A stretch of 63,929 nt of DNA, the filler included, from Reclinomonas americana ATCC 50394 (lineage: Eukaryota), in NCBI GenBank assembly GCA_048213135.1. It is 5 parts of 3 records of this genome, joined end to end, with 100 filler letters (N's around TTAATTAATTAA, not from the genome) between each part and the next. Parts side by side here need not be neighbours in the genome. Positions count along the whole stretch, not along the records: positions 1 to 20,466 come from PS015513.1; positions 20,567 to 41,789 come from PS015514.1; positions 41,890 to 52,886 come from PS015514.1; positions 52,987 to 62,792 come from PS015514.1; 1 more part is not named here. The stretch is one strand, 5' to 3'. Positions 44 to 59,000 of this stretch are shown piece after piece. Each line of letters starts with the position of its first letter. Within the stretch, counting starts at the first letter, position 1. The notes below the pieces were generated by a model, which did not search any database, was not told the DNA's origin, and was given only the letters and a program-made list of their open reading frames with translations. Made by a program: the position numbers and the translations under genes.

Positions 44-2338
44 CAAGCTCACCATCATCGAGACCACCAATGACCTCTTCAACGACACGCTGATTCAGTA
101 CATTCAGCCGACCACCGTGCTCTGCTTTGCGCGCATGTACATTGCGAACCTGGTGGCCACGTTGCGTCCGTGGTGTCGTGTCTTGTGTCGTGTCGTACGC
201 AGTTCTCGACAATTAACCGCTGGCTATCCTGCACGACAGCAATGGACAAGAGTGGGCACACTATTTTGGCATGCACAACTCGTTGCGTATCTTTTCTTCC
301 TCGTCCTCACACGCACCGGCAATACCTGACGTTGCCTTTCTTGACTATTTCATGTCGCTCACTCTCTCTCCCGCTTTCCTCTCGTAGTGGAACCTACAAC
401 AACCAGGTGAGGTCGTTTTTCCTCAACAATCTCCCTGTTTTGCTCTCGTCCTCACACACACACACACACACGCACACAAACGCCTCGCTTCTGTTCTTTT
501 TGTAGTACATTGTGATGGATGGCAAGCGATTCCAGGCAGGCAGTCCACCCTCCAGTGGCTTCCTGTGGGTCCTCGAGCAGATTCCTGGCAAGGTGGTGCA
601 GTTGCGCTGTAGGAGGAGGGGGCATGTCTGTTTCTCCCTTTGTTTTTGACTACGTTCCTCTGACCGTCGCCCTCTTGCAGGCAAGATATGACGCCGTTCT
701 TGGTGCAGCACGGCTACTTCCCCTCGTACAATGTTGCGGCAGCGCAGAGATGCCCTTTTCGCGAGGTGATATTCTCAAACACCCCCCTGTTCTCCTTCGT
801 GCCTGCAGATCCCCTACTTCCAGGAGATTTACGATGACAGCGGGTGAGTCCATTGTTGGTGGAGAGGGCACGACACACGGATACAGAAGGAATCGTGCAC
901 AAAAGAGAAAAAAGAGAAATCAAATCACCACTTTCGTAGGCGATAGGTTACAAGCACTTTCTCCCTTCTTCCTCGCCTCGTTCCTCGCCACATGAGGGAA
1001 AGCGGGTAGAGCGATTGCTTCATTCCTCGGGAGTGCCCATTCGTGCCTCACTATCTCCGATGCGCTGCTCGCTTCCCCCGCCGGTGTGTGTCTCCTCTCG
1101 CTGGATGCCCTTTCGGCCGCTTCTATCCTTCTCCGTCTCCAATTCTTTGTTATGCCTGTCGCCACGCACTCCCCCTCTCTTCCTCCTCTCGTTTCTCCCA
1201 TGCTCCTCAATGCTCTTTTCGAGGCCTGTTTGACGAAAGCTGGCAACAGTAGTGGAGACTATTACCAACAACAAACAGTCGCACTTCATGTCGGGCGTGC
1301 CCCGCCACTGCACGTACGAGCAGGAGCGTCGGGTGGAGGGTGCAGAAGTGGGAGGCGCACTCGCGCTACATGTGGTGACGCAGTAGAAGGAAGAAGAGAT
1401 CATGCATCTCTTTATGAGAGAGAGATGATTGCTCTCAGAAGGAGACTGTCTTGTGATAGAGTGATTCTCAGGTGAGAGATGTGACACGCATCTCTTCGTC
1501 AACAAGAGTGAATAGTGCTCTCAGAAGGAGACTCTTTTGTGCCAGTAGAAAAGTGAGATACCGGCATGACCGGCAATGCCGCACTTTTTTTCTTTTCGTT
1601 GTTGTTTTCAGCCCCTCTTTTTCTTCGTGGGAAGAATGGCGATCGAGTGGGTGATTGCCATGGCTGACCGCACTCTCGGTGTTGCTTGCGTGCAGGTACC
1701 CGGCCATGAAGGCCAAGTACGGCGACGAGTTTAGCTACGAGAAATGTCCGCGGGCACTTATTTTTGCGCGCGACCACGCGGCCGTCGTCGACCGCCAGAG
1801 CTTCCGCGCCATCATGCGGTACAATGACTACACCAAGGTTTTGTGGAGGGGCACAGATGAAGGAGGGCCTCCAAGTGTTGGTCCAACTGAAAATAGTATA
1901 ATCATCACTGTAGGATCCGCTGTCGGGCAACGATCCGCTGAATGCGGTGGCCTCGCGCGGTGATCTGATTGTGCGCTCCAAGGACGACAAGCCCGTGGCC
2001 TTTGGAGCGATTGACGCCAAGAGTTACGTTTCGCGTGGGAGGGTACGAGAGAAACAGCAAAAGCCAGCCCGCGAAGATCGCCTTTCGGCAGTTTTCAATT
2101 TGCTGTCGTTTGGTCGCTGGCTGCCACACTCACTGCCTGCATTCCTGTTCCTTGCGTAGTTAATGACGCTGTAAGTTTGGCCTCGGGGCATCCGGTTGTG
2201 GACGTTATATCAGGGCCGACGCACGAGTCGCTGCCGGCATTTGCCTGGAAGGAACGCGACGGCATTTTTATGGAGGTGCCGCATGAGGGGCAGCCGGAGG
2301 TGTTCGACTTTGACTGGGTGCAGGGTGTGATGGAGTGA
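44..2338 (+). CDS. Phospholipase B-like protein (PLBD/laminin-A family), 5'-partial, 8 visible exons
   Basis: Spliced translation gives IIETTN, NSGTYNNQ, LWVLEQIPG, YFPSYNIPYF, PRALIFARD, IMRYNDY..DPLS, SRGDL, GAIDAK, ISGPT and PHEGQPEVFDFDW, all typical phospholipase B motifs. Introns at 161-239, 282-387, 407-505, 601-680, 733-808, 844-1695, 1838-1913 and 2023-2159; TGA at 2336-2338. Confidence 0.93.
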
Positions 2339-3330: not shown

Positions 3331-3386
<56 letters not shown>

Positions 3387-4310: not shown

Positions 4311-6129
4311 ATGCAACACGTGGCGATGATGCCCCAACACCGCCACCTGTCTTCGTCGTCGACCACTTCGCTGACGTCGGTGGTGGTCTCCTCGCCTGTC
4401 TCCACCTCCACCACTCCCACTCCACCTGCAATTGCGCCAGCGGCCGCCGGCAGTGGTGCAGAAGACGGCGCATCACCCTCATTGACATTTGTGCAAGAAA
4501 CAGGTCGCCATCGGCGGACCAAGATTCGTTTCACCCCTGCGGAGCTGCAATACCTGACCCATTTCTACGACAATGTTGCGTAACACCACCACTACACATC
4601 CTGCCTGCTGCATCGCGGGGATGACGCGTGCTGTGCGCAACGTCTCTTCTGCTGCTGCTGCACTTCATCTTGTCTCAAGAATCTCACAAATGCACCAGGT
4701 TTCGCGCAAGCCAACTGTGCAGCAACTTGAGCAAGTGGCCAGTCGCCTTCCGCGCCAAATTCCTGTACACAACCTGCGCATCTACTTTCAGAACAAGCGG
4801 TAACTTTTTTCGTGTCGCCACTCTCCCCCCAGGACCTTGTTTCATACTTATTGAATATTCCTCATCAGTGCGCAAGAGCAACGGATGTTGAGGCAAATGG
4901 CGGCCGAGACCGGTGGCAACGGTGTGGTTGCGAGCAGAAAGGCCGCAGCTCCGTCCCGCTCCATGTCGCCCGCGTCGCCGAACGATGCAGCCGCCGACCA
5001 CGACTGCTGCATTTCGTCGTCGCGGTCTTCGCCGGATTTGTTTCGCCTGGCTCCCACTGCAGCTGCAGCGGCGGCAGCAGCCGCGGTGGCCGCATTATTG
5101 TCACCGCCTCCACCACCACCGCCGCCACCATCGTCGTCTACGAAAACGACCGTGAAGCAGCAGCAACGACAACCATTCCATCGGCTGCAGCAGTCGCCGC
5201 CGCCTGCATCGCAGCCACCCCTGGTGTTGAGTGGCGGAAAACTGAAACAGCAGCAGCCGCAACGACAGCACCGGCCAGGCGATGTGGCTGCCGCCTCCGC
5301 TGCACCGAAGCGCGTAGACCCGAAACCCGTCGTCGATCTCTCCGACCTGGACGTGCTGGCCGGCGCCGCCATGTACATGTCCCCGAAACCGTCGCCGGCG
5401 ATGACACCAACAGTGGCAGCGGTGACGAGGACAACGACACCACCAACAATAGCGACGCCGACCGCGACGCGCGCGCCAGTGCCCCTGCCTGTTCCCGCTC
5501 TCGCCCTCACCAAGCCAGCCGTGTCTGCCGTCGTCGTCACCGCTGCCACTGCGGCGCCGCCAGTTGTCGATTCCATCGCCAAGACGTTGCTGGCGGCGAC
5601 CAGCAAGCCGGCAGCACCAGCAGCACTGACACGACGAGAGTCGCCGTTCTCGCTGCTCAACTTCCCACCAGTCGACGTGATGCCAGTTGTGCCGACCGCG
5701 CGTCACGTGTCGCTCCACGACGTAATCAATCCGCCATCGCCACTCCGACTGGCACCTCCTCCACCACCGTCGGCATCATCGGCACCACCGCAGTCGGCAG
5801 CCGCGGCCCCTCGCGATCGGTTACCGCAAATTCGTGAGCGCGACGATCAGAGTCCGCCCACCAAGCGCCAAAAGACGGCGGCGAACCAGGTGCTGCGTGG
5901 TGGCATTGCGTGGATGCTGGATAATGACGATGAGGAGGAGAACAACGACGACAAGGGCGATGCCAGCGAGGAGTACGTGAGCGAGGGCAGCGACAGCCAC
6001 AGTGCGCCTGCACAGAGCGATCATCGATGTGCGCCTGTAAGAGCCTCGTGGTCCCCGCTCTCTCGAGCGCAGGCCGAGCGCGACCAGCTTCTGGTGCGCA
6101 AGCGGCTGCGCGATCAGATGGAAAGGTGA
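4311..6129 (+). CDS. Homeodomain transcription factor with long Pro/Ala/Ser-rich tail
   Basis: Exons 4311-4574, 4699-4799 and 4869-6129 give RRTKIRFTPAELQYLTHFYDNVSRKPTVQQLEQVASRL...LRIYFQNKRAQ. The start codon is uncertain (4311 or 4326). Confidence 0.85.
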
Positions 6130-11168: not shown

Positions 11169-11560
11169 TGTGGAGACACGTGTTGCCGCAGGAGGCGCCT
11201 GTGAGTGCTCTGTCGTGCGGCGATGAGGGTTGCGTCTGCTGTTTGTTTGCTAGTGAGAGAGACGGAGAGAGATAGAGAGAGAGAGAGACGGAGGGAGAGA
11301 GAGAGAGCGAGAGAGAGAGAGAGAATCGTACGCGTTCGTGTGTGTGAGAGTGAGACTCACTTGTACGTGTGTGTGTGTGTGTGTGTGTGTTGGTGCAGTG
11401 GTCGTCGCTGCTGTTCAGCAGTGTGTGTACGCCTTTTCGCTGTCGTCGGGGAAGCTGCAGTGGGATGCGTGTGTCACGGAAGACAGCAGAACGTTGCGTC
11501 CTTGCGTATTTTCCGTGTTTCATGGTGGCGACTCATATGCGCGGTGCGGTGCAGTGAGCT

Positions 11561-11596: not shown

Positions 11597-14500
11597 GGTC
11601 GTACAGGGCAAGTTTGTGGTGCTGTTGACTGGCTCGACTGTGCGAGCGTACGGGATGAAGCGCGGCGAGGTGGCTTGGACGTGGAACAGTTCAGAGTTGT
11701 GTGTGGATGCATTGTCGTCTTTCCTTGGTGATGCGTTCCGCCGACTGTGAATCGATTCGCAGACCCAGCGCGGTACCAGTGGCTCTGTCGACCGCCAGCG
11801 CGTCGTCGCTGGAGGTGCAGGTCATCACTCTGTTGACGTTGCGTTCATCGGCCGGTCCTGGCAGCAACGCGTGGTCGTTTGTGGCGGCCGGCATCAAGGT
11901 GCGCGCCTTCATAATGACCGACCCTTCCAGCGTCAGCATCTTGATTCACTCGCTGCTGCTGCTGCTGCTGCTTCTGCTCACGCAGGTTGTCAACCTGACG
12001 GTGGCCACGGGCGCCGAGCGCGTGTCGTCCACCCAGCACTTTTCTCGTGACTTGCGCGTGTCGTCGACGAGCATGGCCGTCACCGATCGTGGTCTGATTG
12101 CCGTGCTCGACACGACCACTGGCACGCTGCTGTGGCATGACGCCAGGTCTGAGTTGTCAAACGTTGCTGGCGGAGCATATAGCACGCACACACTCACTCA
12201 CTTTCTCTTCTCACTCGCCAGCGACGACACCGAGTTGCATTCGGTGACGCTGCAGGTGAGTTGTCATGATTGTGCACGTATTCCCCCTCCCCGCAAATAC
12301 TGACATTGTCGCAAAGAAACTCGGCGTCAAGGATCGTGACTCGGTGGTGACGGCGCTGGGCGCCAACGCATTTGGTGTGTCGTCCGATGCGACTCGTGTG
12401 CTGGTGTTGCGCGCCGACGGCAAGAAGAAGGAGCTGACAGTGGCCAAGGATATCAAGGTAACTCGCACCGTGTCCCCCTGATTTTTTGTACGTCGCACCC
12501 TCATGGTTGTGTGTTTTGGCCACAGTCACCGACCGGTGTCAAGTGCACTCCGTTCGCCGAGTTCTTCAGCTGCGGCTCGGTGAGCGCCAGTGGCGAAGTG
12601 CAAGTGCAGGTGTTTGACTCGCAGACTACGGCGGAGTTGGCGACTGAGAAGGTGGTGGTCTCCGCACTGGCCTCCCAACAACAGCAGGGCGCAGTTCTCC
12701 GCAAGGTCCTCCTTTTCTCTCCCCCCCCCTCACATCTCTTGTTCCCTCTCATGTGGGCGTTTTCGCAGACCTTCCCCTGTCCGTTCAAGAGCGCGCCTGA
12801 CTACTCGTTCCGCACGTTGGTGGTGCTCGACGACGGCCGCACGCTGGCGGCGCAGGGCGGCGAGGTGGGCAACTGCCATTGCCGTTGTTTGCACCCACGC
12901 TTTTTCTCACTCGTTCACCGGAAACAGCTGCTGTGGTTGCACGAGGAGGCGCTGGCGAACTCAGTGTCGGCGCACGTGGTGAACGCCGGCAACGTGGCGG
13001 ATGGTGAGCGTCTCGCAGGCAAGAACGTCTTTCCGGATTATCATGATCTGCTTACTGGTTATTATTTGAATACAGAGTATGAGAGTAGCCAGTCGCTGGG
13101 ATTCTTCTCGCGTCTGGTGGATCAAGTGGCGTTCTTGCAGGTCCGCTGTGCTGTTCTACAATTCGTGTCGCAATATGATGATGGCTCATCGATGTGTGGG
13201 GGGATGCAACGCAGCGTCTCGCTTCAAGTCTCGTGGCGTACGAGTCCATCACCGCCATGAACGAGCAGGTGGCAACGCGCTTTGGTTTCCGCCGCCTGGT
13301 GGTGGTCGCTACGGCATACGGCCGCGTGGCAGCACTGGATACGCTGCACAAGGGCGAGATCACGTGGGCGGTGTCACTGACGCGCGGTGTTTCAGATGTT
13401 GCGACGCCTGTGCGTCTGTTGTTGTGCACCTTTATCTGTAATTTGCTGAATGCGTGGTGCGGTGCAGGATCTGGAAATTCGATCCGTGTTTGTGACAGAA
13501 GAGGGTCATCACCGCGCGCCTGTCCTGGCTGTTGTGCTCGTCCGTCGTAGCGACGTTTCGTGTTATTTTCTGTCGGTGTATGTGGTCGATTTGTTGGCGC
13601 CTGCTAAAAACTTATCCATCACGCCGTGCAGGATACTGTCGATTCGGTGGTCTGGTTGCACGGTGGCACTGGCGAGGTATTGGAACGGCAGACTGCCATC
13701 AACGCCAAGCCTATTCGCATGTTCCTCTCCGACAGTCACACGTCGTGCGGCACCAACCGTCTGGGGCGTGCACTGATTCTCGTGTCGGAGGCGCTGAAGG
13801 TGCGTGCACATGTTGCTCGTCTGCGTGTTTGTGCGGAGTTTATGTGCACTGATTTCTGCGCAACAGGTATCGGTGCTGCCCGAGGAGTGTGTCAGCGCGG
13901 TGCTGTCCTCCTCCGCTGGTGTGCCCGTGTTCTTTGACCACCTGGACAGGACGACTGGCACGGTTACCGGGTACAAGGTGGCCGACGGCAAGGTGTGTTT
14001 TGTTGGGGTAGTGGTGTTGCTGTCGGTGTTGCTGATGGATTGACATTACACCGCGCAGGCCACGTCGGTATGGAGCATGGTGTTGGAGGGTGGCGGAGTC
14101 CATGTTGCCGCCATCGCGTCGACAGTGTACTCGTCGCCGGTGCCGTTTGCGAATTATCGCGCCCCGGGTCGTCCCACTCGTCGCAAGTACCTGAATCCGC
14201 ACGCGCGTGCCGTCGCTCTGGAGACCCCTGGTGCGTCGTTGGCGTGCATGCGTGCATGCTCTCACGTACATTTTACCCACGTGCGCTGTGTGCACAACAG
14301 GAGCCGAGGGCAGCACCTCGGTTAAGATCCTGGTGTTTGACGGACTCACGGGCACGGTGGTGTACTCGGTGACGCAGCCGAACGCGCGTGGACCAGTGCA
14401 CCTGTACATGGTGAGTGGCACATGCTGGCCAAGTGTGAATGCAAGTCCCTTTGACTATGAAGTCACTTGTTTGTGTCGCAGCGTGAGAACTGGCTGACCT

Positions 14501-15379
14501 ATCACTTGTGGAGCACCAAGGCCAATCGTTACGAAATGGCCGTGGTCGAGCTCTTCTCGGAAGTGCCGTTGCGTGCGGACACGGTATCTTTCTCCGCCTT
14601 CTCTGCGTCAACACGCTCACGTACCTCGCAGCGCCGATCACTCGGACGTGACGTTCAACGCCTTTGATGCTCCCCGTGTGACAGCCGTCTCACAGTCATT
14701 CATCTATCCGCACGGCATCCGCACGTTGTCGTCGACTTCCACCCGCCTCGGTGTCGCGCCAACTCGCCTGCTGGGTTCGTCGTGTTTGCGCTGCGTGTCC
14801 TCCCATCGTGTTGTTGTTGACGTGGGGGAGGGGCGAAAAACATAGTCGGCCTGGCGTCGGGACAGGTGCACTCGCTGCCGCGGCAGTATCTGGATGCCAA
14901 TCGCGAGTTTGCCGACCAGCCGAATCCCGCCGCACCGCCAGCTCCTGGCACGCCGTACCCGTACTACCCGGTGTTGCCAGTGGACGACCTGAATGTGATC
15001 TCGCATGATCGTATCGTGCGTCCACCACTGTGCATCGACGAGTTGTCGTCGACTATAACTGACACACACGCACAGATTCCGAGGCTGCGCGACATTGTCT
15101 CCGCACCGGCCGTCGCCGAGTCGACGAGTCACGTGGTCGCCCGTGGCATTGATTTGTTCTACACGCGCACCTTCCCGGCACAGTTGCGCAGTGCTGCATG
15201 TGAGATGCAGCTGTGGTGGGAGCTGACAGTCGCTGCCGCCCTGCAGAGAGTTCGACATGATTACGGAGAATTTCAACTTCAAGCTGCTGGCGGGCGTTCT
15301 CGGCGCTCTCACTGCGGTCACGCTGCTCCTCCGATGGCTGTCGCGGCGCAAGGAGTTGTCCAATCTGTGGTCGAACTGA
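11169..15379 (+). CDS. EMC1: ER membrane protein complex subunit 1, 5' end in gap, multi-exon
   Basis: WRHVL, LWLHEEALA, FGFRRLVVVAT, KYLNP, ENWLTY, AVSQSFIYP, ESTSHVVARGIDLFYTR..P..FDMITENFN, then a C-terminal TM helix and ..KELSNLW*. Confidence 0.93.
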
Positions 15380-37300: not shown

Positions 37301-40008
37301 CCGAGTTGCGTGAGAGTAATCGTCTACCCCTTTCCTATTTGTGATTGTTTCGCTGATTGGAGGCGAGCAGGCGAGCGGATCGCCCGACTTCCAGCGCCAC
37401 GTCACCGCTCTGTTCGGCGTGGTGGTGGGCCGTCTGCAAATGCAGGACATTAACCAGGATGTGAAGGAGGCCGCCATCAACGCCATTGCCGACATTATTG
37501 CCGCCTTTGGCGATGTGGTGCCGCTTGATGAGGTGTGTGTGTTTCTCTCCTGCGCCCTGTCCCTTCATTTCTCTCACACCCTGATCCCTTCTTCTTTCCT
37601 TAACACAGGCACTGTCGCTGCTGCTGGACCGCCTGCGCAACGAAATCACTCGGTTGACGACGGTCAAGGCGCTGCGCTCGATTGTGGCCACGCACGCTCG
37701 TCGCCTGGACCCGATCATGCGCGAGTTGATCGCCGAACTCATCTCGTTCTTGCGCAAGAACGACCGAGCTCTGCGTGCTGCCGCCATTCAGTCCTTGGCC
37801 AGCCTCATCACCGCGTACCCGGCGGCGTTTGCCGGCGACACCTACGCGCACCTGCTCGGCGAGTTGTCGCAGACCATTACCGGTGCCGACTTGTTCCTCG
37901 TCCAGCTGGCCGTGCGTCTCGCCGTCACAGTGCTCGGCGCCGATGGCTCCACTGCCGGCGCCGTGTACGAGTGCGTCGGACGACCGCTGTTTGTGCTCCT
38001 CCGCGGCGCGCTGCTGCAAGGCAACGCCATGGAGGTGTGTGTCTCTCCTCTCTCCCTTTCATTGTCATTGTCATCATGGTGCTCACCAATTCTTCCGCAG
38101 CCTGTTCTGCGTCTGTTCAGTGGCCTGGTGCAGGCCGGCACTCCGGGCTTCCGTGTGCTGTGCGACTCCGTGCTGGACATGCGTGCCTCGTCGGCCGAGG
38201 AGGCATCGCTGGGCAAGCAGGCGTACGTCTCACTGGCGCAAGCTCTGGCCGCCATGTGCTCGGTGGCCACGGCGCAGGAGCGCTCCTCGACGGTGCAGCA
38301 GTTGGTGCACACCATGCAGCGTGCCGGCGCTGACGACCCCAGCCGCATTCTCGGTCTCTACTCACTGGGTGAGATCTCGCGCTCGTTCGACGTGGAATCG
38401 GTGGTGCACCAGGTGCGCGACGAAGTGATCAAGTCGTTCGACGGCCCAGAGGAGGTGCGCAGTGCCGCCGCCGTGTGCCTCGGCAACATTGCGGCTGGCG
38501 CGCTCGACAAGCACCTGCCGTTCATTCTCGGCGAGATTCGTGGCGGCTCGCCGCACAAGTACACCCTGCTGCGCTCGTTGAAGCAGGTGATTGACGGTGC
38601 GGCTCCAGCGCAGCTGCAGTCGCGCGTGTCGGACATTGTGCCACTGCTGGTGGGCAGCGTGGAGGCCGGCCAGGATGTCGGCGTGCGAAACATTGTGGCC
38701 GAGTGCCTGGGCAAGCTGATTGTCACCAACCCGCCGGCGCTGCTGCCGACAATTCGAGTTGCGTGGAAAGAAATCACTCGCGTGATTCGGGAGCTTCTGA
38801 CGTGCCTTGTGTGTGTGCAGGAGGGCATGGACAGGTCGCTCAACATGCGCGTGGTGTCCATCACGGCACTCAAGTCGGCGCTGAGCGAGCCGGGCATTGG
38901 CGACGGTTCAGTGCTGGCCGACGATGTGCTGCGGACGCTGTCGATGCTCAACCCGGGACTCGATCTGGTGCGTGAAGAAAAAGAGGGGAGAAAGGGTTCA
39001 AGGTGGATTGCTGATGGGCCTCACGACTTGCAGGAGGTGCGACGTGCTCTGGTGCTGCTGCTGAACAGCTGCGTCCACAACAAGGCGCATCTGGTGCGCG
39101 ACCACCTGCACGAGATTGCGCCGTTGGTGTACGTGGAGACACCAGTGAATGTTGCGTCTGGTGTCGTGCCGCTCTCCGCTGTAGTTTGGTCGCCTGACTG
39201 ACTCGTGTGTGTGCGCGCGCGCTCCAACAGCAAGCGCTGCTGCGACAAGTGGATCTCGGTCCATTCAAGCACCAGGTCGACGATGGCCTGGAGCTGCGCA
39301 AGGCTGTGTTTGAGTGCATGGATGCCCTGCTGGAGAGCTGCTCGGAGGTGAGTGACTGGGGAGAAGGGGCGGAGTAAGTCCTGGTTGGTGGCTGACTCGT
39401 CAGTTGTTTTTCGCAGAGCCTCTTGCTGGCCGACTTTGTCAGTGCCTTGATCGTGGGTCTCTCCGATCCCGACTACGACATTCGCATGCTCGTGCACCTC
39501 ATCTTTGGCAAGCTGGCGCAAGTGGCACCCTCGTCGCTTCTGCCTGGTGCGTTGTGTGTTGACGACAGTGCGCGTGTCGTCGCCATACCCTTCCCATTTA
39601 CATGCTGTTTGCAGTTCTCGACGAATTGGTGGCGCCGCTGAAGGTGACGCTGGAGACCACGGCGAAGAAGAATGCCGTGCAGCAGGACGAGGATCGCGTG
39701 AAGGAGCTGATTCGAAGTGCCGTCAAGGCGTGCCGTCTCATTTCGATTGCACTGGTTGGTGTTCTCTCCTCTTTTCGTCTACCAGTCGGTTTTTTTGTGA
39801 TCTCACTCCATTGCTGCAGGGCACGGAGAGTGCCACGTCACAAAAGGCGCCCGACGCACTTGGCTCTGGTGCTTTCCACGAGCTCGTCACCAAGGTCATT
39901 CGCGCCAAGGACGATCTCAAGTCGTTGTACGAGAGCGGTGATTTGGACGCACCGACGACACCCACGCCGCCGCCGAATGAGGGCACGTCGGGCAACCCGT
40001 TCCGTTGA
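34371..40008 (+). CDS. CAND1: Cullin-associated NEDD8-dissociated protein 1
   Basis: [47 protein letters not shown]-like [36 protein letters not shown] and [24 protein letters not shown]. Confidence 0.97.
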
Positions 40009-45859: not shown

Positions 45860-48538
45860 GTCGTGTATCCAGCGATGATTTCCGCAAAGTGCTGGCCGAG
45901 TACGGCGTGAAGCGCGGAGTCAATCCAATCGTCCGTCGCTTTGCCGCCGCCGCCGGGGCGTCTCCCGCCTCCGCCGCAGCGTCGCCGTCTACACAAGTCG
46001 ATTACACTGCGTTCTTGTCGTACTTTGCCGACGCGAAAAAGTTCTGCAATGGCCATGGCGCGCTCTCTCTCTGTGCTCTTCTCTCTTGTGTACTGACGTG
46101 TGGGTTTGCGTTGTGTAAAAAAAACAAGGCCGCAACGGACGCCGCCGACGCCGACGAGTATGATGGCTGCACTGGCGTCGCCGACTTCGTTGAATGCCGA
46201 GGTGGGTGTCAATCATGAATGAGAGAGAATGAGAACAGCAATGGGAGAGAGCAGTGTGAGGCAGTGTAGAGCAGTGTGGGAGAGAGAGAGAGCGTGTTTG
46301 GAGTGAGAATGCGTTCGACTTTGGATTGTCACGTTCTGTCATGTCTGAGATATCGAAACGCAGCGGACAGTGTGTCTGGTGAACGATCGAGTGTGTATGT
46401 GTGTGTGAGAGAGAGCATAGAGAGCGAAGAGTGTGTATGTGTGTGCGTGTGAGAGACGGTGAGCGTTCTTGTGACGCGATGAATCGCGACCAACAGTGCT
46501 TTGTCTTTGCGAGAGAGAGTGTCACGATAAGCGATGTCTTGCGTGGCTGTTGTGTTTGTGTGTACTCGGTTGTTGTCGCCGCGGGGTTGGTGGTGTTTCG
46601 TTGAACTGGCGATATTTCTCCGATTTCTCGGACGCGCGGCACTCATCAACCGCTGAACTGATTCTCGTCTCTCCTCCACCCTGTCATCTGTCTTGTTCTT
46701 TGCCTAGTTCTCCGTCTCCCTTGCCTCTCACTTCTCACGTCACTCCTCGACGCGATCCTCTCACTCCCCACATCTCGTTGTCCACCTCTCGTTCTCCACT
46801 TCGCGCTCTCCACTTCTCACTCCCCCACCTCGCTCTCCCTCCTCACTCCCCACCTCTCACTCCCCACCTCGCTCCCCCTCCTTTCCCTCTCTTTTCTCGC
46901 TTCCCACCTCACTCCCCCACCTCACTCCCCCACCTCTCTCCCCCACCTCGCTCCCCACCTCGTACTCCCCACCTCGCACTCTTCACCTCGCTTCCCCACC
47001 TCACACTCCCCACCTCGCACTCTTCACCTCACACTCCCCACCTCGCACTCTTCACCTTGCACTCTTCACCTCGCAAATTCCAACCTCTCACTCCCATCCT
47101 CCCCCTTCGCTCGCTTCCCCTTCCCTCCTTTCCCCTTCCCTCCCTCCCCCTTCCCCTTTCCCTCCCTCCCCCTTCCCCTTTCCCTCCCTTCCCCTTCCCC
47201 CACCCTTCCACCTCGCTCACCTCCCTTCCCCCTTTCCCCCCACATAGACTCCACCCGTCTCCCAGGCCAAGCCCACCGAGATCTCCCACTCCCCGAACCC
47301 GCGCGACATGCGCACATCGGTGGACAGGAAAGCCAATCACCTCCACGGACCTGGCGAGTCATCACTCGCACGCTTGCTGAAAGATCGCGACCGCGTCGGC
47401 AGCACACTCCGTGAGATGGACCGCGAGCGCAAGGGAGTCGTCTCCAAGGCCGATTTCGAAGCTGGTTGCGTCGCCGTCCCACACCCACCCTATTTTTGTG
47501 CCGCTCGCTCACTTTTGCTATTGAATGGCAGGTTTGGAGAGCGCTGGCATTCGAGCCACTGACCCCGAGGTGCAAGCCATGGTGCGTCGCGCCGAGACCG
47601 CCGATGGCAAGGTTGCGTACTCGCAGCTGCTGTCGATTCTGCCAGACGCCACCACCATTACCACCCCGTCGGCCGAGTCATCGTCGCACGCCAGCCTGAT
47701 GGCCACCACCGCCGCCAACCAGTTTGTGCCCGCCGCCGCCCAGAACGCCGCCTCGCGCCGCAAGTCGGTGCCGGAGACCATGGATATGCGACAGAACTCC
47801 ACGCCGCTCAACCCGGTGACGCAGAAGCGCATGGCCAAGTTGGATCGCGCGATGCAGCTCTTTTCGAGCTCCGATCCGCTCAACACGGGTGTCGTGCCGG
47901 CCGATGACTTTGTCAGCAGTTGCGTGGGTGGCAGGTGTTGTTCAGGGTGAAGGGATGTGTTCTTCTCTCTCTCTCTCTCATGTTGCTTGCTTTTATCATT
48001 TTCTGTCATCTCAATTCCAGTTACCCGCACGCTGTCACTCGTTTCCCGCTGCATCTCGGTCTTCTCTCTCTCTCTCTNNNNNNNNNNNNNNNNNNNNNNN
48101 NNNNNNNNNNNNNNNNNNNNNNNNNNNNNNNNNNNNNNNNNNNNNNNNNNNNNNNNNNNNNNNNNNNNNNNNNNNNNNNNNNNNNNNNNNNNNNNNNNNN
48201 NNNNNNNNNNNNNNNNNNNNNNNNNNNNNNNNNNNNNNNNNNNNNNNNNNNNNNNNNNNNNNNNNNNNNNNNNNNNNNNNNNNNNNNNNNNNNNNNNNNN
48301 NNNNNNNNNNNNNNNNNNNNNNNNNNNNNNNNNNNNNNNNNNNNNNNNNNNNNNNNNNNNNNNNNNNNNNNNNNNNNNNNNNNNNNNNNNNNNNNNNNNN
48401 NNNNNNNNNNNNNNNNNNNNNNNNNNNNNNNNNNNNNTCTCTTCTCTCTCTTCTTCTTCGTTCGTTCGTTTCGTTCTTCTTCTTACTTCTCTCTCTCTAC
48501 TACTACTACTACGTACTCGTACCTCTCGTCTCTCTCTC

Positions 48539-48636: not shown

Positions 48637-51600
48637 CCTGACGTACTCGTTGTCACTCATCTTGTACGTTGATGGTCACGCTCCATCACACTCCTGCCTT
48701 TGTCTTCCATCCCTCATGTCTCCCCGCATTTCTCTCCCTCTCCCTCTCCCTCGCTCCCTTTCCACTCTTACTCTCCCGTGTAAATTCTTCCCTCATTACA
48801 TCGCTTTCCATTTCCGTTTCCCTTCTCCTCTTCCCTTTCCCTTCTCCTCTTCCCCTTCCCTTCGCTTACCCTCTCGCAGCCCTCCGCACCATCAACCCCA
48901 CCGTCGGACCCAAGGAGGTGGAGCACCTCGTCAACCGCCTCAGCGATCCCGCCACCCGCACCGTCGACTACCGCAAGTTCCTGCAGGTGGCCAGCGCCCT
49001 CGAGAGCAAGTTTGTCAGCGATCCCTCCTCACCCAGCGCTGGTGGCGCCGTGACCGACGACAGCGACGTTTCGTCCATCTCGTGGCACTGTTCTACCTTA
49101 CTCCACAACTCACCTTCGCGTCTTTATCTCTCACAGCAACGACTTGCGTTTGGTGTGTCGTCCCCTCTGGCTGCCACCCGTCAGGAGCGCGCCGAGATGC
49201 TTCACACTTCGGAGGTGTTTGACTCGAGTGCGGTGAGTGGCTGCGAGTTTGGCTTGCCAGGCTGGCTTCTGTAGCTCACCACTTGCACTGCAGCCGCCAC
49301 CATCATCGCCGGCCGGCAAGCGCTTCGTCAGGGAAAACGTCAACGTTGCTCCCAAGTTTGACGAGCAGAAGCGCCGTGATGTGGTGACCTGGGACCGCTC
49401 CAAGGCCCTGACTCCGGAGGAGAAGCGATTGGAGGAGCTGCACAAGACCATTCGTGATAAGGTGTGTGATGAGATGGGGAGGTGGTGGGCTTGCTGGTAG
49501 ATTTTCCTTCATGCACTGTCTCTATGTACTTTGCCACCTTGTTCACGTTCGTGACGTGGCTTGACGCGCGCACGCACGTATTTCTTGTGCGATAGTTACA
49601 CCGCATGCGTACTTCCTGTGGTGTGGTTGCTGTGTGCGATGAATCGTGCAAGCGCTATTCTCTTAGCCACATTGTGCGTGTTCTCTTCACTGTATTTCCT
49701 TCTCACCGTAGCGCCTTGACGCGCGCACACGCACGTAGTTTGACTTCTTTCTGTTCTGCACTGTCTCGGTGTGCGTGTCCTCTACTCTGTATCTCCTTAT
49801 CGTCGTTGTGCCATGACTCAATTCCCTACTCGTTCACTCTCATGGTGCATTGTTTTTCTGTACATCGTCACACTTCTTTGCATTCCCTGTAGTGGTATCG
49901 TCTTGTCGTTTTTTCATAGAAATACGCGCGCACACGCGCGCATCTCAATTATCTACATGTCTTTCTTGGCTTTGGTGTTCATTTTCGTGACGTGCTCTGA
50001 CGCCCGCGCATTATTCTCTTCTCCCTTCACCTCTCTTCTCCTTTCCCTCACCCTCCCCCTTTCCCTTCCCCCCTTCTCACCCTTCCCCCTTCCCTAGGTG
50101 TACGGCCGCTCGTCCAACCTCGTCCAAGTCTTCCGCCAATTCGACCTCGACGGCAACGGCACGGTCGACCGCGACGAGCTCCGCAACGGCCTCTTTGGCC
50201 TGGGCCTGCAGCTCAACGGTCCCGATTTCGACCGCCTCTACCGCTCCTTTGACAAGGACGGCAGCGGCGAGATTGACTACCAGGAGTTCGCCACGGCTGT
50301 GGGCATGGGGTGCGTCGAGTTTCCCTCCCCCTTATATTGTGTTTTTCACGCGCTCACACTCTCTTCGCTAACAGACCGCCTCCACCACCCACCGAGTACG
50401 ACCTGTCGGAGCGCCGCGAGTTCACTGGCGGCATCAAGGGCGGTGTCGACGTGAAGATGGATCGCGACAAATCCGACATCTTTTTCGAGGGCGACGTGTC
50501 GAAGAAGGAGGAGGAGCGCATGCGCACCTCGGTCAAGGTCAATTACTACAAGAACAAGACCTCGGACGAGGTCAACCTCAGCCACAATCCGGAGGTGCAG
50601 GAGGAGATGGAGTTCCGCTTCCTCCGCGAGCAGATCATGGACAAGGCCGAGCGCAAGACCGAGCGCATTCGCGACCTGTTCTTGGAGTTTGACGAGAATG
50701 GCGACGGTGTCATCTCGTACGACGAGTTCCGCCAGGGTCTGCGCAAGCTGGGTGTCAACGCCAAGCCTGTGCAGGTGGAGAAGCTGATCCAGTTGGCCGA
50801 CGCCGACGGCAACGGCGACATAGATTACGCCGAGTTTGTCGACGTTATGCGCTTTGACAAGATGTTGCGTTGCGGGGCAAGAGTGGGGAAGGGTGTTTAG
50901 ATATCTGTGCAGTGACAGACAGAGTGCGGAGGTGAGCAGCAGATAGGGAGAGAGAAGTGCCAGGGGGTCTGTGTAGCATGAGGGCGTGCAAAGCGGGCGA
51001 GAGGTGCTGTGAGACTTTCTCAGCCTTCGAAACCATGAGTGTTTCTTCTTTCTGAGGCAAGAAGTTGCATGAGATCTGCGGAACAAAAGAAAGAAGGAGA
51101 ATGTGACTTGCTTCACCTTGGCAACGATGAGTGGTTCTGTGTGCCAGAGAGCGTGTGGCAGAGTGTACAAGGGATGTACTGTGCGACGTTCTCCACTTGT
51201 GAAGTGATGGGGAGAACTGTGAGACTCGTGCGCCGAAGATGTGCATTCTTTTGACTCGTGGAAGTGAGGGCAAGCTCAGTGATAATGTCTGTTGTTTGTT
51301 GAATGCATGTCACTGTGTTGCCGCTGCTTGATCACTTCCCGTCATATTCCTTTGCTCTTTCCTTCCTCCCCGTCCTCAATCCTCTTTCCCTTGCACCTGC
51401 CTCCCATCCTTTTGGCATCTCTTTGCTTCTCTCCCCTTGTATCTTCTGTCCCTGTCTCTCGTCCTTCTAATTTCCCTTTCCCTTCCCCTTCTTCTTACCC
51501 TTCCCCTTCCCTCCCTTCCCCTCCCTTCTCCTTATTCAGTGTGGCCGAGGACCCATTCGCCCAAGCCGCCATGAGGCGCAAGACCGTGCGCCGCCGCAAG

Positions 51601-52373
51601 GTCGACTACCCCGGCAACAAGTGCCTCGGTATTCCGACCGACGTGCTGAACCAGCACCCCGAGTACGAGCGCCGTGACTACGAGTTTGCCTCGTCGCAAG
51701 GCGTGTACCAGCTGGTGCCGCTGGTGAAGAAGGGCAGTGGACCGACGATTGTCGGACCGGACACGATGACCACCACCGACCGCAAGGATTTGCTGCTGCG
51801 CCGCAAGATCACTGTTGCGTGACATGACAAAGATGATGTTGTGGTTGTTGTAATGACTGTTGTTATTCACACTGTTTTTTTTCCCCCAACAACAGGAGAA
51901 ACTGTGGGGCCGCGACGACCGCCTGCGCGACATGTTCCAGCGCTTTGACAAGCGTGGCGAGGGTCACATTACGTACCCCGAGTTCCGCGACGGCCTCAAC
52001 TCTCTGGGCGTGGAGCTCACGATTCCCGAGTTTGAGCGCCTCGTCACCTACATTGATGCCGACAAGTCGGGCACGATCGAGTACAACGAGTTTGTCACTC
52101 TGGTGCGCCCTCCCGGCGGCGATGACGCGCCCGGCTCGCCTGTGCGCGTGCCCGACCACCTCAAGTCGTCGCTGAGTGGCGCGGCTGGAGCGCTGGCTGA
52201 CGATGCGGGACCACGCCGCAAGATGACGCGCCAGGATCTGATGCTGAAGCGCCGCATTGCCGACCGCATTACGCAGAAGACGGCCGACATTCGCCGCGTG
52301 TTCCAGCAGTTTGACACGGACGGTAATGGCAGCTTGGATCTCGACGAGTTCCGCACTGGATTGGAGAGCTTGG
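45860..52373 (+). CDS. Large multi-EF-hand calcium-binding protein (about 13 EF loops), partial
   Basis: Loops include DRERKGVVSKADF, DLDGNGTVDRDEL, DKDGSGEIDYQEF, DENGDGVISYDEF, DADGNGDIDYAEF, DKRGEGHITYPEF, DADKSGTIEYNEF and DTDGNGSLDLDEF in spliced exons. Confidence 0.9.
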
Positions 52374-52886
52374 GTGCGTGGATTGGAGAGGGGACGGGAA
52401 GAGAGGGCAAGGGAAGAGAGAGGGAAAGGGGAGAGAGAGGGCAAGGGAAGAGAGAGANNNNNNNNNNNNNNNNNNNNNNNNNNNNNNNNNNNNNNNNNNN
52501 NNNNNNNNNNNNNNNNNNNNNNNNNNNNNNNNNNNNNNNNNNNNNNNNNNNNNNNNNNNNNNNNNNNNNNNNNNNNNNNNNNNNNCAGAGTGTAGAGAAC
52601 ACAGATTGTGAGAACACAGACTGGAAAGAACAAGGAGTGGACGGGAACAAAGAGTGGATAGAAGCAATTGAGAAACACACAGACAAATACACGAGCGGAG
52701 AGAACGTAGAGAGGGAAGAGAAAACACAGTGTGAAGAACAGAGAGTGGAGAAACAGAGCAAGGAGACGGAGAATACACTTTATGAAGAGAACACAGATGC
52801 AGAGAACACGGAAGATACGGAACAGGTAGACTCCTCTCCGCAATCTCTTCCCTTTCTCTCCTCTCTACAATTCTCTCTTCCCTTTC

Positions 52887-53128: not shown

Positions 53129-53234
53129 CCTCCCTCCTCCTCCCTCCCTCCCTCCCTCCCTCCCTCCTCTCTCTCTCTCTCTCTCCCCCCCCCCCTATCT
53201 TCCCCTTGCTCACCTCCCTCTCTCCCTCCCCCAG

Positions 53235-54255: not shown

Positions 54256-54345
<90 letters not shown>

Positions 54346-54926: not shown

Positions 54927-56062
54927 AACGTGGGCTCCATCAACCGCGACGAAGAGACCGCCCCTGACCGCTACTTGCGCGCCGGTGCCCGCGCTCTCGG
55001 CATGCCCTTTGTTCGCTTCATCCCCACTCGTCGTTGCGCGCCTTGCGTTCTTCTTCTTCTTCTCCCCCATCTTTTTGATGACTATTCGCTGAGCTCTGCT
55101 CTCCCCAACCCAGCCGCGTACTTTGGCAACGCGATACTCACCCGCCTCCCCGTTCTCAAGTTCGCCTGGACGCACATTCCCGAGGTCGCCGTGCCACCAA
55201 CCTCGTCGTACGCCGACTATGGCGATCGCTCAGTGGCCGCCGTGCGCGTGCTGCTCGGCGACGGGCACGTGGTGAATGTGGTGTCGACGCACTTGGATCA
55301 CCGCACTGAGGACATTCGTGTGGGCCAGATGCGTTTCGTGAGCGAGTGGATGCGCGAGTTTGCGGCGGCGCCCAACGACGACGGCTCGTTGGTGGGGGTG
55401 AACGCTCCGTGCTTGGTGGTGGGCGACTTGAACTCGCTGCGTCGTGCCGACTATGACGAGGAGCAGTGGGCGCTCGTCAGGCGTGGTCGCAAGAAAGCAG
55501 TGATTGAGCCGGCGCGCTTCGAGGTGGTGCAGCTGATGGAGGAGGAGATGCAGTGGGTGGACTGTGCTCGCGTCGTGGCGCCGTGTGTGGGGGAGGTGAG
55601 GAGAATGAGTGAGAGAGGGAGAGAGATCATAGAAGGTGCTGCTTGTGCGACCTGCTGCACTAGGGAACAGAAGCTGACTTGCTGAGTGTGACGGTTGTGG
55701 TATTGATGACGCAGGCACGCTCGTGGGAGACTGTAGCGAGTCCGGCTTGGCCACAGTTGCGTCCGTGGGCGACTGTCAGCCCGCCGGGCAACTTCTTCTT
55801 CAACGTGGCCACCTGCTGGGTCGGCACGCGCGTTGATTACGAGTTTGTGACGCCCGACTGGAGCCTGCCGGTGGTGTCGTGCGCGCCGGCCGACAATCGC
55901 AGCGCGGATCACTTGCCACTCATTGCGGAGTTTGCGGTGCCTGAGGGCGGAGATGCGGTGATGGCAGTAGCAGCAGCAGCACCACCACCAGTAGTGGAAG
56001 CAGAGGAAGTGGCGGTACCACAACAGGGTCGTTTACAAGAGGAAAATCCTCACGTTGTCTAG
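54927..56062 (+). CDS. Endonuclease/exonuclease/phosphatase (EEP) family protein, 5' missing
   Basis: FGNAILTR, STHLD, VVGDLNS, RVDYEF and SADHLPL catalytic motifs. Confidence 0.9.
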
Positions 56063-59000
56063 CAAATATACGTGAAGCACTGCGGTCCTGAATAGCACTG
56101 TGCGGGAGGAGGAGATGAACATTCATGAAGAGGACGGATGTTAGGGGATACCAGAAGCAGACCTTGCTGCACGATTCGCACTTGCTGCCAGTGTATTGGA
56201 CCTGTGGGAGAGACAGAGAATGTTAGCATGAGTCGCCGCGCCTGCCGACGTTGCGCATCCTTGTTGCAGAATATTTTCACGTTGCAGTCTCTGTCTTTAT
56301 CCATGCGCCGGTGCAAGGAAACAACCACAATATCTTCGCTTTCTCCGCCACATTTATCATTCTCGTCCTCTCTATCTCTCTCCCAACACACAACCTTGTT
56401 GCAAAATAATCTCTCGTTGCTGTCTCCGTCTTTATCCATGCGCTGTTGCAAGGAAACAACCACAATACCTTCGCTTTCTCCGCCATGCACTTCCTCTTTC
56501 TCTACCACCGATCTCTTCTTCGTCTACTTCTTCTTGTTCTCCTTTTCTTGCCCTTCTTCTCTTTCCTCTTCCTCTTCCTGTTCCTCCTCCCGTTCCTCCT
56601 CTCTTCCTCCTCCTCTTCCTCATCCTCCTCCTCCTTTCTCTTCTTCACACATTTTTCTCATTCCTCGTCTCCCTCCACTAAACATTGCATACGCAGATGC
56701 CGGAAGCTCTTCTTCCGCTCTTTCCCTCTCTCTCGACACGTATACCATACCCCAGCCCCACGATACCCACTGCGAACACAACTGCAAACCATGTCTCCCC
56801 GCCACTTCCCCACCATGCACCGTCTCTTCCTCCCATTCTCATATCCCGTCTTTCCCCACACCACATTGCACACACAGTTGCCAGAATCTTCCCCTCGCTC
56901 ATCCTGACTTAATTCGCACTCGCTCCCTGCTCTGTCTGTCTCACTATTTCTCCCGTTTTCTTTCCCCACCCATCTCCCACCCTTTCCATCCCTTCCTCCC
57001 TTCCCCTCATCTCTCCCGTCCACGCAACATTACACACACAGTTACCGGCCGCGTTGCACTGGCCGCGACCACCGCATGTCTCAACAGGCCGACAGCTGCA
57101 ATCTGGTCCGCCGTACCTACACCACACATGGAAATGTGAGATTGCTGCAGTCAACACTGAGCAAGTGGCCTGCACAAACAAACCCTGTGTAGCACTTGCA
57201 AGTTCCTGCGAATAACAAACAACACTCTCAGCTCAGCACAGCAACACACCAATCCCACCACAAAAGCACAGACGAACGCACCGTCGGGGTTGCAAGTACC
57301 ACCATTAGAGCAGGTGATCTGAGCCGAGCACTGAGTCTGCAAGGGAGTAACCTCGTTGTCAGAACCAGCTGCTAACAAGCTGTGGGATGTGAGAAGGCTC
57401 ACCGCTGGTGCCGTCTCGCAGCTGGTGCCAGTGTAACCGGTCTTGCACACGCAACCGGTGCCTGTGAGGCCATCCGAGCAGGAAGCGGTGCCCGTTGATG
57501 AGCTGCAGTTGGAGCAGGGTGAGTGGAAACTACGGAACAGGACGAAGAAAGACCACCGTCATCAAACCATGAGGAGCACTGCAGCAGTAAAGCACAACGA
57601 ATGAGCTCGATATGCGCACAACAACAATCACTCATCAAGATAACACCACACCTTGCCAGCGCAAGACGCGCCAAAATAGCCAGCCGCGCATTGGTTACAA
57701 GCGGCGCCAGCAAAGCCCACATCGCACGTGCTACGAGAGAGAGGGAAAAATTGCGGTGATAAGAATGAGAGTCAGCGGCTACTGCATCATTGAAAGTCGA
57801 ATGCAGACCAGGTGCCAGCCGAAGTGCAAGTCCCGCGACTGGAGCATGTTCCGGCTCGCGAGCATGCGCACGTCGGGCCACTGTAGCCAGTGTTGCATGA
57901 GCAACCGCCAGTGGATCCGCTGACGCACGTGGCGGTGCCGAGAGTCGAGCACTCGGTGCATGAGCGATCGCAGAATGAACCCCAGAATCCCGACTTGCAC
58001 ACGCAGCCAGTGGAGCCGCAGGAGGCGGTGTTGGCGGCCACGCTGTGGGGTGGAGTAAGAATTCACAATCACCATGTCACTCTCCTCCTCCCCCCACAAG
58101 AAACTCACCATGTGGAGCACGTGAGAGTGCACGAGGCACCGAAGAAGCCCGCAGCACAGCCACTGCAACTGGCGCCGCCATAGTTGCCAGTGCACACACA
58201 GCTACCGTCAGCCTGTGCGACACCACGACCGGAGCATGTGGTGGCATCCGCGTATTGACACAACGGTCCGGCGGTACCAGCGGGGCACGAGCATTTTCCG
58301 TCGCCAGCAATGCCCTGGCGGCAAGTGCCACCATTCTGACACACTGGGCACTGACCGCTGCAGTCGGCACCGAATCGGCCGACGGTGCACTCGCTGCAGG
58401 AGGCGTTGCCTTGCCATGCCGCATTGCACACGCATGAGCCAGTTGCTGAGCATGTACCTCGTCCATTGCTACTCACCAAGAGAGGAGTGTGAGTTGCGCG
58501 TGCAGTGCCCCACGAGAGCGAACAACTCACCATGTGGTGGCCGGCACACAGACAACGGCAAGGGAGCAGTCGGACTTGGTGGAGCCATTAATGCACAAGC
58601 ATGCACCAGTGTCTGCATCATGCCGGCAAGGTGAGCCACATAGACTTCTCCAAACTGCACATCGCGTCAAACGCAACTGAGACACAAGCCACCGCCGGAG
58701 CAATTGACGGCTGGGTCGCACGGTGTGGGATTCTGCACGCGTATGAACAGGATGAGGAAAACGGAAGCAACCACAGCATCGCAGCATGCAATGCAGTGCC
58801 CACCGCCACGTAGGTTCGGCAATTGGGGAACTGCAGAGGGAATCGAGTGAGGGGAGACAGAGAAAAGGAGGGCAGTGCAGAATCACAAAAGTCACCTCCG
58901 AGGCAACATAGTTGCGGGCACAAGCGTTGCAGTTTGGTCCCTGTGTGCGTGAGGACGTGAGAACAGGACATACATTCACACGGCACCACCTCCATGAACG

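Follow-up and report, generated by a model that had tools for sequence, protein, structure and literature searches.

The pairing between the 5' splice site and the 5' end of U1 is among the most conserved in eukaryotes, and noncanonical registers of this pairing are known mainly as rare human exceptions. Two such registers have been described at human 5' splice sites, namely a shifted U1 register (Roca and Krainer 2009, via PMC4856993) and a register with a bulge at +2/+3 (Roca et al. 2012, via PMC4856993 and PMC9311317); in the accessible parts of PMC4856993 and PMC9311317, both kinds of site are exceptions that truly pair with canonical U1. A different scheme divides 5' splice sites into exon-side and intron-side classes, AG//GUNNN and NN//GURAG, which anticorrelate (accessible text of PMC11732430), and a negative coupling between the exonic and intronic parts of the consensus is reported in the corresponding parts of PMC10599564 and also PMC11842720. 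In addition, a diplonemid genome contains U1 genes with differing 5' ends; the available portion of that paper (PMC12621601) gives the variant U1 a complementarity comparable to that of the canonical one together with a single donor logo, and a second donor class is not described there. Here, we analyse 63,929 bases of eukaryotic nuclear DNA from Reclinomonas americana (hereafter the window), in which a large group of predicted introns begins with GTTGCG, a donor one base longer on the intron side than the standard donor of the same genes.

By comparing the GTTGCG donors with these systems, as the accessible texts present them, both likenesses and differences are found. Like the human shifted-register sites, they are cleaved at a GU that precedes by one base the position implied by the remainder of the site, carry G at +6 and not at +5, and match U1 weakly in the canonical register. 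On the other hand, the human sites are rare and atypical and form long, A/U-rich pairing with canonical U1, whereas here about a quarter of the introns are concerned and the GCG core is invariant. The bulge +2/+3 sites are similar in that they start with GUU, one U of which is able to loop, and in that the downstream standard consensus is moved by one position; they should keep G at -1, whereas only 2 of the 22 GTTGCG donors have this base, and their duplex is predicted to be unstable. The exon-side/intron-side scheme likewise has two anticorrelated classes, an exon-leaning AG/GU class and an intron-leaning class free of exon consensus, but it has a single register with G+5, whereas in the window the intron-side class is one base longer (T+3, C+5, G+6) and the exon-side class also keeps G+5. 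Finally, the diplonemid genome of PMC12621601 sets a precedent for the coexistence of different 5' splice site-binding sequences in one genome, the kind of cause that we favour here; the donors of those diplonemids are (G)/GTATG or weak, and YTRAY branch motifs are scarce in them, which sets them apart from the window.

Between about a quarter and a third of the window's introns have the heptamer GTTGCGT as their predicted donor, and the GTTGCG(T) sites are, as judged from sequence and protein comparison, very probably real donors. The class is known here from one window; its one-base offset on the intron side is borne out, and its pairing partner is proposed. A description of a GUUGCG, GTTGCG or GTTGCGT donor was not found in the open-access literature, among the matches listed. 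Use of a discrete, one-base-longer donor by between a quarter and a third of the introns of a genome would amount to a natural experiment: it bears on the way in which the cleavage site is set when U1, U6 and exon contacts are in conflict, and on whether small nuclear RNAs (snRNAs) can co-evolve with splice sites. If the proposal set out below is true, the organism would show a large-scale natural co-variation between U1 (perhaps also U6) and the 5' splice site, with two registers in one spliceosome.

GTTGCG sites as predicted donors

Gene models were built with a GT-AG gene finder using codon-usage scoring, and in the first passes GT alone constrained the donor. For the junction test, every GT..AG pair that kept the frame open between two anchors was enumerated, and the resulting peptides were scored against homologues with no donor preference. 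The curated set contains 84 introns, of which 30 are labelled H (homology or paralogues), 5 are labelled M, 1 is labelled F, 2 were added by hand and 46 come from the self-trained model alone; among the 30, the support is loose at 36155, 39547, 39755, 14231 and 14568. All 84 introns, including 22 with GTTGCG, pass the GT...AG check.

GTTGCG opens 22 of the 84 curated introns, where independent position frequencies predict 2.3, and 12 of the 30 homology-supported ones, where 1.8 are expected. The first-pass annotation of this DNA had called GTTGCG a mainstream donor class and had named the comparison with position frequencies as a check; within the window, the class withstands it. The other donors of the set comprise 9 further GTT-N-N-G donors, 46 with G at +5 and 7 with neither feature. 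The raw number of GTTGCG copies, 69 over both strands, is only mildly high (shuffled sequences gave 53.8 +/- 8.0, and 2 of 100 shuffles reached 69), so the signal lies in where the copies are placed. Indeed, GTTGCG accounts for 69 of the 7,629 GT sites (0.9%), and it was chosen for 6 of 67 introns in a gene-finder pass with unconstrained donors (binomial p = 3e-5). When a mixture of two position weight matrices was fitted to the donors with no prior, one component was A-R-[C/A]/GTTGCGT (weight 0.32, G-1 in 15%) and the other was AG/GTG-N-GT (weight 0.68, G-1 in 86%).

A test that is independent of coding gave a similar picture. The pattern CTSAY...YAG follows within 40-140 nucleotides (nt) after 19 of 29 GTTGCGT copies, compared with 1740 of 7349 GT sites (24%; p = 2e-6); the downstream rates are 32% for GTGCGT and 35% for GTGAGT. 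With respect to the gene models, 24 GTTGCGT copies lie in sense orientation (15 donors, 8 exonic, 1 intronic) and 2 in antisense.

The first-pass annotation had proposed 21 introns starting with GTTGCG. The hexamer is present at all 21 coordinates, and the base before it is as described there, a non-G in 20 cases, with 47465 as the only G. The introns themselves fared less uniformly. Nine are supported at the residue level by homologues (161, 282, 601, 733, 15183, 32057, 37305, 38758 and 39151) and two by uninterrupted paralogous repeats (47465 and 51814), and at these eleven the spliced frame is continuous and alignable; the support is moderate at 4575, 28798 and 29871, and it comes from the model or the frame at 11493, 27547, 55033 and 50864. 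The claim is probably wrong at 57028 (minus strand), where the unspliced reading gives CVCNVAWTGE. There, EGF_2 and EGF_Teneurin matches extend 5-6 residues beyond the claimed donor and the paralogous stretch reads CVCNAAWQGN, so this copy of GTTGCG is probably coding sequence. The rarer relatives in the same annotation, GTTACG, GTTTCG, GTTGAG and GTTGTG, were also recovered in independent gene models. Besides these, new GTTGCG candidates were found at 14568, 11229, 13398, 31484 and 58677 (minus strand), together with an ambiguous site at 35944/35947/35952.

It might be argued that the class is an artefact of frames read by eye or of self-trained models, with the true donors elsewhere, or that it marks the end of a mobile element. 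In line with this, 57028 is probably coding, the heptamer alone is insufficient to make a donor (sense-strand copies at 11838, 47612, 57455 and 57028 are not donors), several model junctions were misplaced, such as 14784 for 14775, and the junctions rest on sequence and protein comparison. However, the enumeration free of donor preference selects nine sites through homologues and two through paralogues, the downstream branch and acceptor signature does not depend on coding models, and an all-versus-all comparison of the 84 introns finds microsatellite matches only. We therefore regard an artefact as very improbable.

Two donor classes offset by one base

The donors of the window are bimodal, with an AG/GTG-N-GT class (the standard class) and an H/GTTGCGT class. 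T at +3 goes with G at +6 and no G at +5 in 31 introns, and a base other than T at +3 goes with G at +5 and no G at +6 in 33, with few mixed cases; the near-universal G is thus moved from +5 to +6 in T+3 donors, as had been claimed. The claimed anticorrelation with G-1 is equally clear. This base precedes 2 of 22 GTTGCG donors and 41 of 46 G+5 donors (Fisher test, 1.2e-10), and in the homology-supported set the counts are 1 of 12 for GTTGCG and 15 of 15 for the standard class (p = 9e-7). Of the 69 copies of GTTGCG across the window, just 7 follow a G, so a portion of this depletion may be background; the GTTGCG class certainly lacks the strong selection for this base that marks the standard class.

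On the intron side, the GTT-N-N-G donors read as the local consensus with an extra T, again in agreement with the first-pass annotation, since their positions +4, +6, +7 and +8 copy the standard positions +3, +5, +6 and +7. In fact, +4 has G 77%, T 13% and A 6% (standard +3: G 72%, T 13%, A 9%), the G at +6 corresponds to the standard G at +5, T at +7 reaches 74% (61% at standard +6), and C+G at +8 reaches 74% (70% at standard +7). On the other hand, +5 is C in 28 of 31 GTTnnG donors, compared with 33% at the corresponding standard +4. The exon side does not follow the offset: A at -2 has nearly the same frequency in GTTGCG donors (50%) and in the standard class (52%), A at -1 is found in 27% of the former (n = 22), and there is no exon consensus in the GTTGCG donors beyond A at -2/-3. 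Within GTTGCG, G4, C5 and G6 are near-invariant, and a direct read-out is suggested.

For a genome of 52% G+C, the standard class is unusual as well: +3 is G in 72% and A in 9% of its donors, G hardly ever occurs at +4, and 89% have G-1. The large excess of G over A at standard +3 would fit a U1 partner other than U or pseudouridine at this position.

Pairing with the U1 5' end

Duplexes were predicted with RNAduplex using the canonical U1 5' end, AUACUUACCUG, as in PMC4856993, with any register allowed. The standard class pairs with a median of -6.4 kcal/mol, and its G+1 lies on C8 in 44 of 46 donors. The GTTGCG donors have a median of -1.1 kcal/mol, compared with -2.1 kcal/mol for random GT sites, and 77% of 3,000 control GT sites pair with canonical U1 as well as or better than they do. 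In the RNAduplex optimum, their G+1 lies on C9 in 2 of 22 and on C8 in 2 of 22. Complementarity to the U1 5' end, judged on the canonical end only, is therefore not found in the GTTGCG donors.

These results bear on the possibility that canonical U1 and U6 read the GTTGCG donors in a noncanonical register: G+1 would lie on C9 after a shift of one base, or else a U at +2/+3 would be bulged. Both registers are documented for human sites in the accessible part of PMC4856993, the standard class of the window fits canonical U1, and intron positions +4, +6, +7 and +8 mirror the standard positions one base upstream. Moreover, the GTTnnG flanks score a log-likelihood ratio of +11.7 on the standard columns when moved by one base and -37.0 when unmoved, a gap that comes mostly from the G-1 column. 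The G-U expected at +6/+7 from the shifted register is also present (31 donors; T+7 in 74%), but pairing on C9 is rare (2 of 22). Indeed, no stable duplex is predicted in any register, the median lying below that of random GT sites, and the C at +5 (90%) opposite U or pseudouridine is left unexplained. In the plain shifted register, A should move from -2 to -1; it does not (50% at -2 and 27% at -1), and since the duplex is also poorer than at random GT sites, this register is unsupported and was rejected. The bulged register would keep G-1, which occurs in 2 of 22 donors, and is likewise unsupported. The shifted or bulged reading on canonical U1, to which the first-pass annotation had appealed, is thus unsupported as stated, and we consider this explanation rather unlikely.

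A further possibility is that the 5' splice sites of this class are defined without U1, as an extreme form of the intron-side ('U6-type' or 'right-handed') class recognized through U6, U5, Prp8 or a LUC7-like protein, with room for the additional U at the active site. The poor pairing with canonical U1 and the lack of exon consensus other than A at -2/-3 are in its favour. However, a near-invariance over 7 nt exceeds that of the usual protein-assisted classes, and by reasoning, not computation, a canonical ACAGAGA box would give two pairs (G+6, U+7) after a one-base loop. According to PMC11732430, PMC10599564 and PMC11842720, exon-side and intron-side consensus anticorrelate as a general rule, which agrees with such a definition, but the known intron-side class retains G+5. 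This explanation seems more doubtful than the noncanonical register.

Canonical U1 pairs poorly with the GTTGCG donors in every register, and we therefore favour a non-canonical snRNA partner as the reader of this class, tentatively and while ranking it above the noncanonical register and, further down, U1-independent definition. Altered recognition of the 5' splice site in a general sense is likely. As a whole, a discrete and real GTTGCG(T) class read by a non-canonical pairing partner is the best explanation that we can offer, with nearly as much speaking for it as against it. The extra donor base would be read by base pairing, with a partner other than the canonical U1 5' end. The partner may be either a U1 isoform with complementarity to GUUGCGU or a U1 whose binding strand is one nt longer, ...ACG(Y)AAC..., and which would pair continuously with GUUGCGU. 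The longer strand would pair with AG/GUGNGU by bulging one of its own bases, and U6 would need to contact G+6/U+7 while U+3 is looped out. With seven uninterrupted pairs, including four G:C, exon-side pairing would be dispensable, and within this proposal the absence of G-1 would follow from this. More specifically, the sole U1 or a second isoform may depart from the near-universal ACUUACCU, for example by being one nt longer (...ACG(Y)AAC...), with a quarter or more of the introns having co-evolved a GUUGCGU donor; this version is a little more speculative than the unspecified partner.

In order to compare possible partners, 80 hypothetical U1 ends of the form AUAC-(2 or 3 nt)-ACCUG were evaluated by how well they separate each class from control GT sites, expressed as the area under the curve (AUC). 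The one-base-longer ends reach AUCs of 0.92 for the GTT class and 0.86 for the standard class (GUA) and of 0.89 and 0.82 (GCA), compared with 0.35 and 0.90 for the canonical end.

Several points weigh against the non-canonical partner. Since the longer end was selected on the very 77 donors that it fits well, this fit is no independent evidence, and the nearest-neighbour energies leave out pseudouridines, U1C and LUC7. The U1 5' end is very widely conserved in eukaryotes, and the standard class of the window fits the canonical end well, as its AUC indicates. G at -1 would go on pairing with a longer or complementary U1, and the lack of this base requires the further assumption that exon pairing is dispensable or too stabilising. 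A scan of the window with Rfam gave nothing at gathering thresholds, hence no snRNA gene and no U11/U12-like RNA. In addition, all junctions have sequence and protein comparison as their basis, and the 84 introns come from one 64-kb window, 46 of them from the self-trained model alone.

Intron bodies and 3' signals

Apart from their donors, the GTTGCG introns are ordinary GT-AG introns of 60-125 nt, with a median length of 75 nt (70.5 nt for G+5 introns). At a distance of 8-45 nt from the 3' end, a CTSAY motif is present in 15 of 22 GTTGCG introns, in 32 of 46 standard introns and, for comparison, in 17% of shuffled tails. Similarly, C is found at -3 of the acceptor in 21 of 22 GTTGCG and 37 of 46 G+5 introns, and pyrimidine content and branch distance are alike in the two classes.

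A separate minor-spliceosome-like system with its own snRNAs might also remove the GTTGCGT introns. The class resembles U12-type introns in having a tight start motif of several bases, here 7 nt, and in not requiring an exon-side G. However, the U12-type 5' motif is of the RTATCCTT kind, which GTTGCGT is not, and the window holds no U11/U12-like RNA recognized by Rfam. The CTSAY branch motif is equally frequent in both classes, TCCTTRAY itself not having been scanned for, and branch distance, pyrimidines and CAG acceptor match those of the standard class. Since the two classes share branch motif and acceptor, a separate minor-type system was rejected, and we consider it least probable of all the explanations. 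An origin from a mobile element or introner was also rejected, because the 84 introns form no sequence family or repeat family and share only microsatellites.

Individual sites and gene models

The coordinates of the introns, donor sites and genes are collected in Table 1.

Table 1. Predicted introns, donor sites and genes in the window (scores are those of the junction enumeration; in the first column, "new" marks sites beyond those of the first-pass annotation)
Feature	Position	Strand	Evidence or remark
Phospholipase B-like gene	1-2338	+	Pfam
GTTGCG intron, 79 nt, phospholipase B-like	161..239	+	top of all GT..AG pairs, guide P0014, 64 vs 51
GTTGCG intron, 106 nt	282..387	+	two-intron enumeration, guide P0014, 54 vs 37
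GTTGCG intron, 80 nt, phospholipase B-like	601..680	+	P0014, 79 vs 65
GTTGCG intron, 76 nt, phospholipase B-like	733..808	+	P0014, 90 vs 69
GTTACG intron candidate, 137 nt	2023..2159	+	gene model; homology ranks 4 and 2
GTTGCG intron, 124 nt, inside homeodomain	4575..4698	+	frame change required; exon 2 = Homeodomain profile 22-52; moderate
EMC1	11.2-15.4 kb	+	Pfam
GTTGCG candidate, EMC1, new	11229..11421	+	gene model only
GTTGCG intron, 62 nt, EMC1	11493..11554	+	gene model only; homologues align poorly there
GTTGTG intron, 73 nt	11696..11768	+	gene model only
GTTGCG candidate, EMC1, new	13398..13631	+	gene model only
GTTGCG intron, EMC1, new	14568..14631	+	picked with donors unconstrained
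GTTCGT intron, G at -1, EMC1	14775..14845	+	four homologues; gene model had 14784
GTTGCG intron, 64 nt, EMC1 C-terminal domain	15183..15246	+	gapless junction against 11 homologues
GTTTCG intron, new	25469..25542	-	gene model only
GTTGAG intron, 72 nt	25732..25803	-	gene model only
GTTGCG intron, 70 nt	27478..27547	-	gene model only
GTTGCG claimed donor, 72 nt to claimed acceptor	27960..28031	-	frames open on both sides, without homology; splice would fuse two modelled genes
Macro-domain gene		-	Pfam
GTTGCG intron, 74 nt, Macro domain (HT-N/GP)	28725..28798	-	exons match Macro profile 1-41 and 71-106 in order; moderate
GTTGCG intron, 60 nt, before WD40 exon	29871..29930	+	frame-compatible, good acceptor; upstream exon coding score weak
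GTTGCG candidate, RRP7, new	31484..31553	+	picked with donors unconstrained
GTTGCG intron, 70 nt, RRP7	32057..32126	+	Pfam RRP7 profile
CAND1	34.4-40.0 kb	+	Pfam
GTTACG intron, CAND1, G at -1	35394..35470	+	mean 42.5 vs 25.2, 6 homologues; gapless
Extra in-frame CAND1 intron	35944..36030	+	donor 35944 GTTGTT, 35947 GTTGCG or 35952 GTGCGC
GTTTCG intron, 75 nt, in frame, stop-free, CAND1	36570..36644	+	takes out insertion absent from 12 homologues; 18.7 vs 15.3
GTTGCG intron, 66 nt, CAND1	37305..37370	+	TPR_CAND1 profile 2-84 then 82-126 on the two exons; gapless
GTTGCG intron, 63 nt, in frame, stop-free, CAND1	38758..38820	+	29.5 vs 25.0 for next donor
GTTGCG intron, 80 nt, CAND1	39151..39230	+	72.2 vs 60.8; gapless; picked with donors unconstrained
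Multi-EF-hand gene	47-52.6 kb	+	Pfam
GTTGCG intron, 67 nt, EF-hand gene	47465..47531	+	paralogous EF-hand repeats, 27-28 vs 12; sole claimed site with G-1
GTTGCG, EF-hand gene	47919..47924	+	repeat position and phase as 47465; no acceptor found, masked N downstream (48078-48437)
GTTTCG intron, 69 nt	49068..49136	+	gene model only
GTTGCG donor, predicted 676-nt intron	50864..51539	+	frame compatibility
GTTGCG intron, 82 nt, EF-hand gene	51814..51895	+	paralogous repeats, 74 and 64 vs 61 and 51 for other acceptor
GTTGCG candidate, 81 nt, in frame, stop-free	55033..55113	+	gene model only
EGF-repeat gene	56.9-61.4 kb (56900-61400)	-	Pfam; unmodelled by gene finder
GTTGCG claimed donor, probably coding	57023..57028	-	V-A in CVCNVAWTGE; paralogue CVCNAAWQGN
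GTTGCG candidate, 65 nt, EGF-repeat gene, new	58613..58677	-	read-through stops after 3 codons; splice keeps Cys-rich frame
Homeodomain gene, short-chain dehydrogenase, WD40 gene, RRP7, methyltransferase			Pfam

In the phospholipase B-like gene, the intron at 161 is 79 nt long and not 42 nt, the latter being the distance to the first CAG. With P0015, a guide more distant than P0014, the junction at 733 takes third rank (46 vs 48). A micro-exon of 19 nt (388-406, plus strand), which supplies GTYNNQ of the phospholipase B-like protein, is flanked by the GTTGCG intron 282-387 and a GTGAGG intron, 407-505.

At 14568, the EMC1 homologues align on the upstream side up to the junction, and the downstream side is variable. 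The GTTCGT donor at 14775 shows us that T+3 also occurs in the standard register, with G+5. Across 32057, positions 5-92 of the RRP7 profile are matched by exon 1 down to its final residue, position 93 falls to the split codon, and 94-120 are matched by exon 2 from its first residue on. At 37305, the margin over the next choice is narrow (14.2 vs 13.8, six homologues). For 35944-36030, all spliced forms outscore the unspliced one against 5 homologues, and an acidic low-complexity region leaves the donor ambiguous. At 55033, a PDB search across the candidate intron gave a chance match only, and a Pfam search was not decisive.

In the EF-hand gene, the sites at 47465 and 47919 (plus strand) occupy the same position and phase in paralogous EF-hand repeats (F-x-x-[G]-L), which suggests that the donor type was inherited by internal duplication. 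The intron at 51814 was also picked with donors unconstrained. A tandem GTTGCGTTGCG at 50864-50874 (plus strand) offers two candidate donors 5 nt apart; of these, only the one at 50864 (phase 2) keeps the frame with the acceptor at 51539, whereas 50869 does not, and the next clear exon starts at 51540. In the EGF-repeat gene, GTTGCGTG is coding at 57028 and 57455 (C-V or V-A in CxCxxxWxG-type motifs), and 58677 resembles a further GTTGCG donor.

Several junctions of the gene models were mended by homology: the intron at 28923 was shortened from 321 to 58 nt, and the introns at 50869 and 51064 were removed. The introns at 36570 and about 35944-36030, and probably the one at 11899-11985, had been missed by the gene model. 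A length divisible by three without an in-frame stop is found, on the plus strand, at 36570-36644, 38758-38820, 37305-37370, 55033-55113, about 35944-36030 and about 11899-11985, and three stop-free in-frame introns were read through by the gene model until homologues revealed the insertions. Because several introns are in frame and lack stops, open-frame reading alone cannot reveal them. In general, gene finders that were trained on one donor matrix will set many of this genome's junctions wrongly, as the single-model pass did here.

Other features of the window

The window has a G+C content of about 52% and contains 4,497 masked N in 17 runs, namely 10066-11014, 15487-16430, 32520-33472 and 14 shorter ones. 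Some of the runs are intragenic, in the region upstream in EMC1 and in the EF-hand gene (48078-48437 and 52458-52585), and they conceal exons or acceptors. No transfer RNA gene was found in the window, and at E <= 1 the Rfam scan of the window gave just three sub-threshold matches to microRNA or small nucleolar RNA families. The closest CAND1 homologues have 37-38% identity, and a metagenome scan with a CAND1 exon returned 600 pattern matches with no relative among them. The protein nearest to the phospholipase B exon, P0014 (67% identity), is labelled a contaminant in an isopod genome assembly; given this identity and label, a relative of Reclinomonas americana may be present in that assembly.

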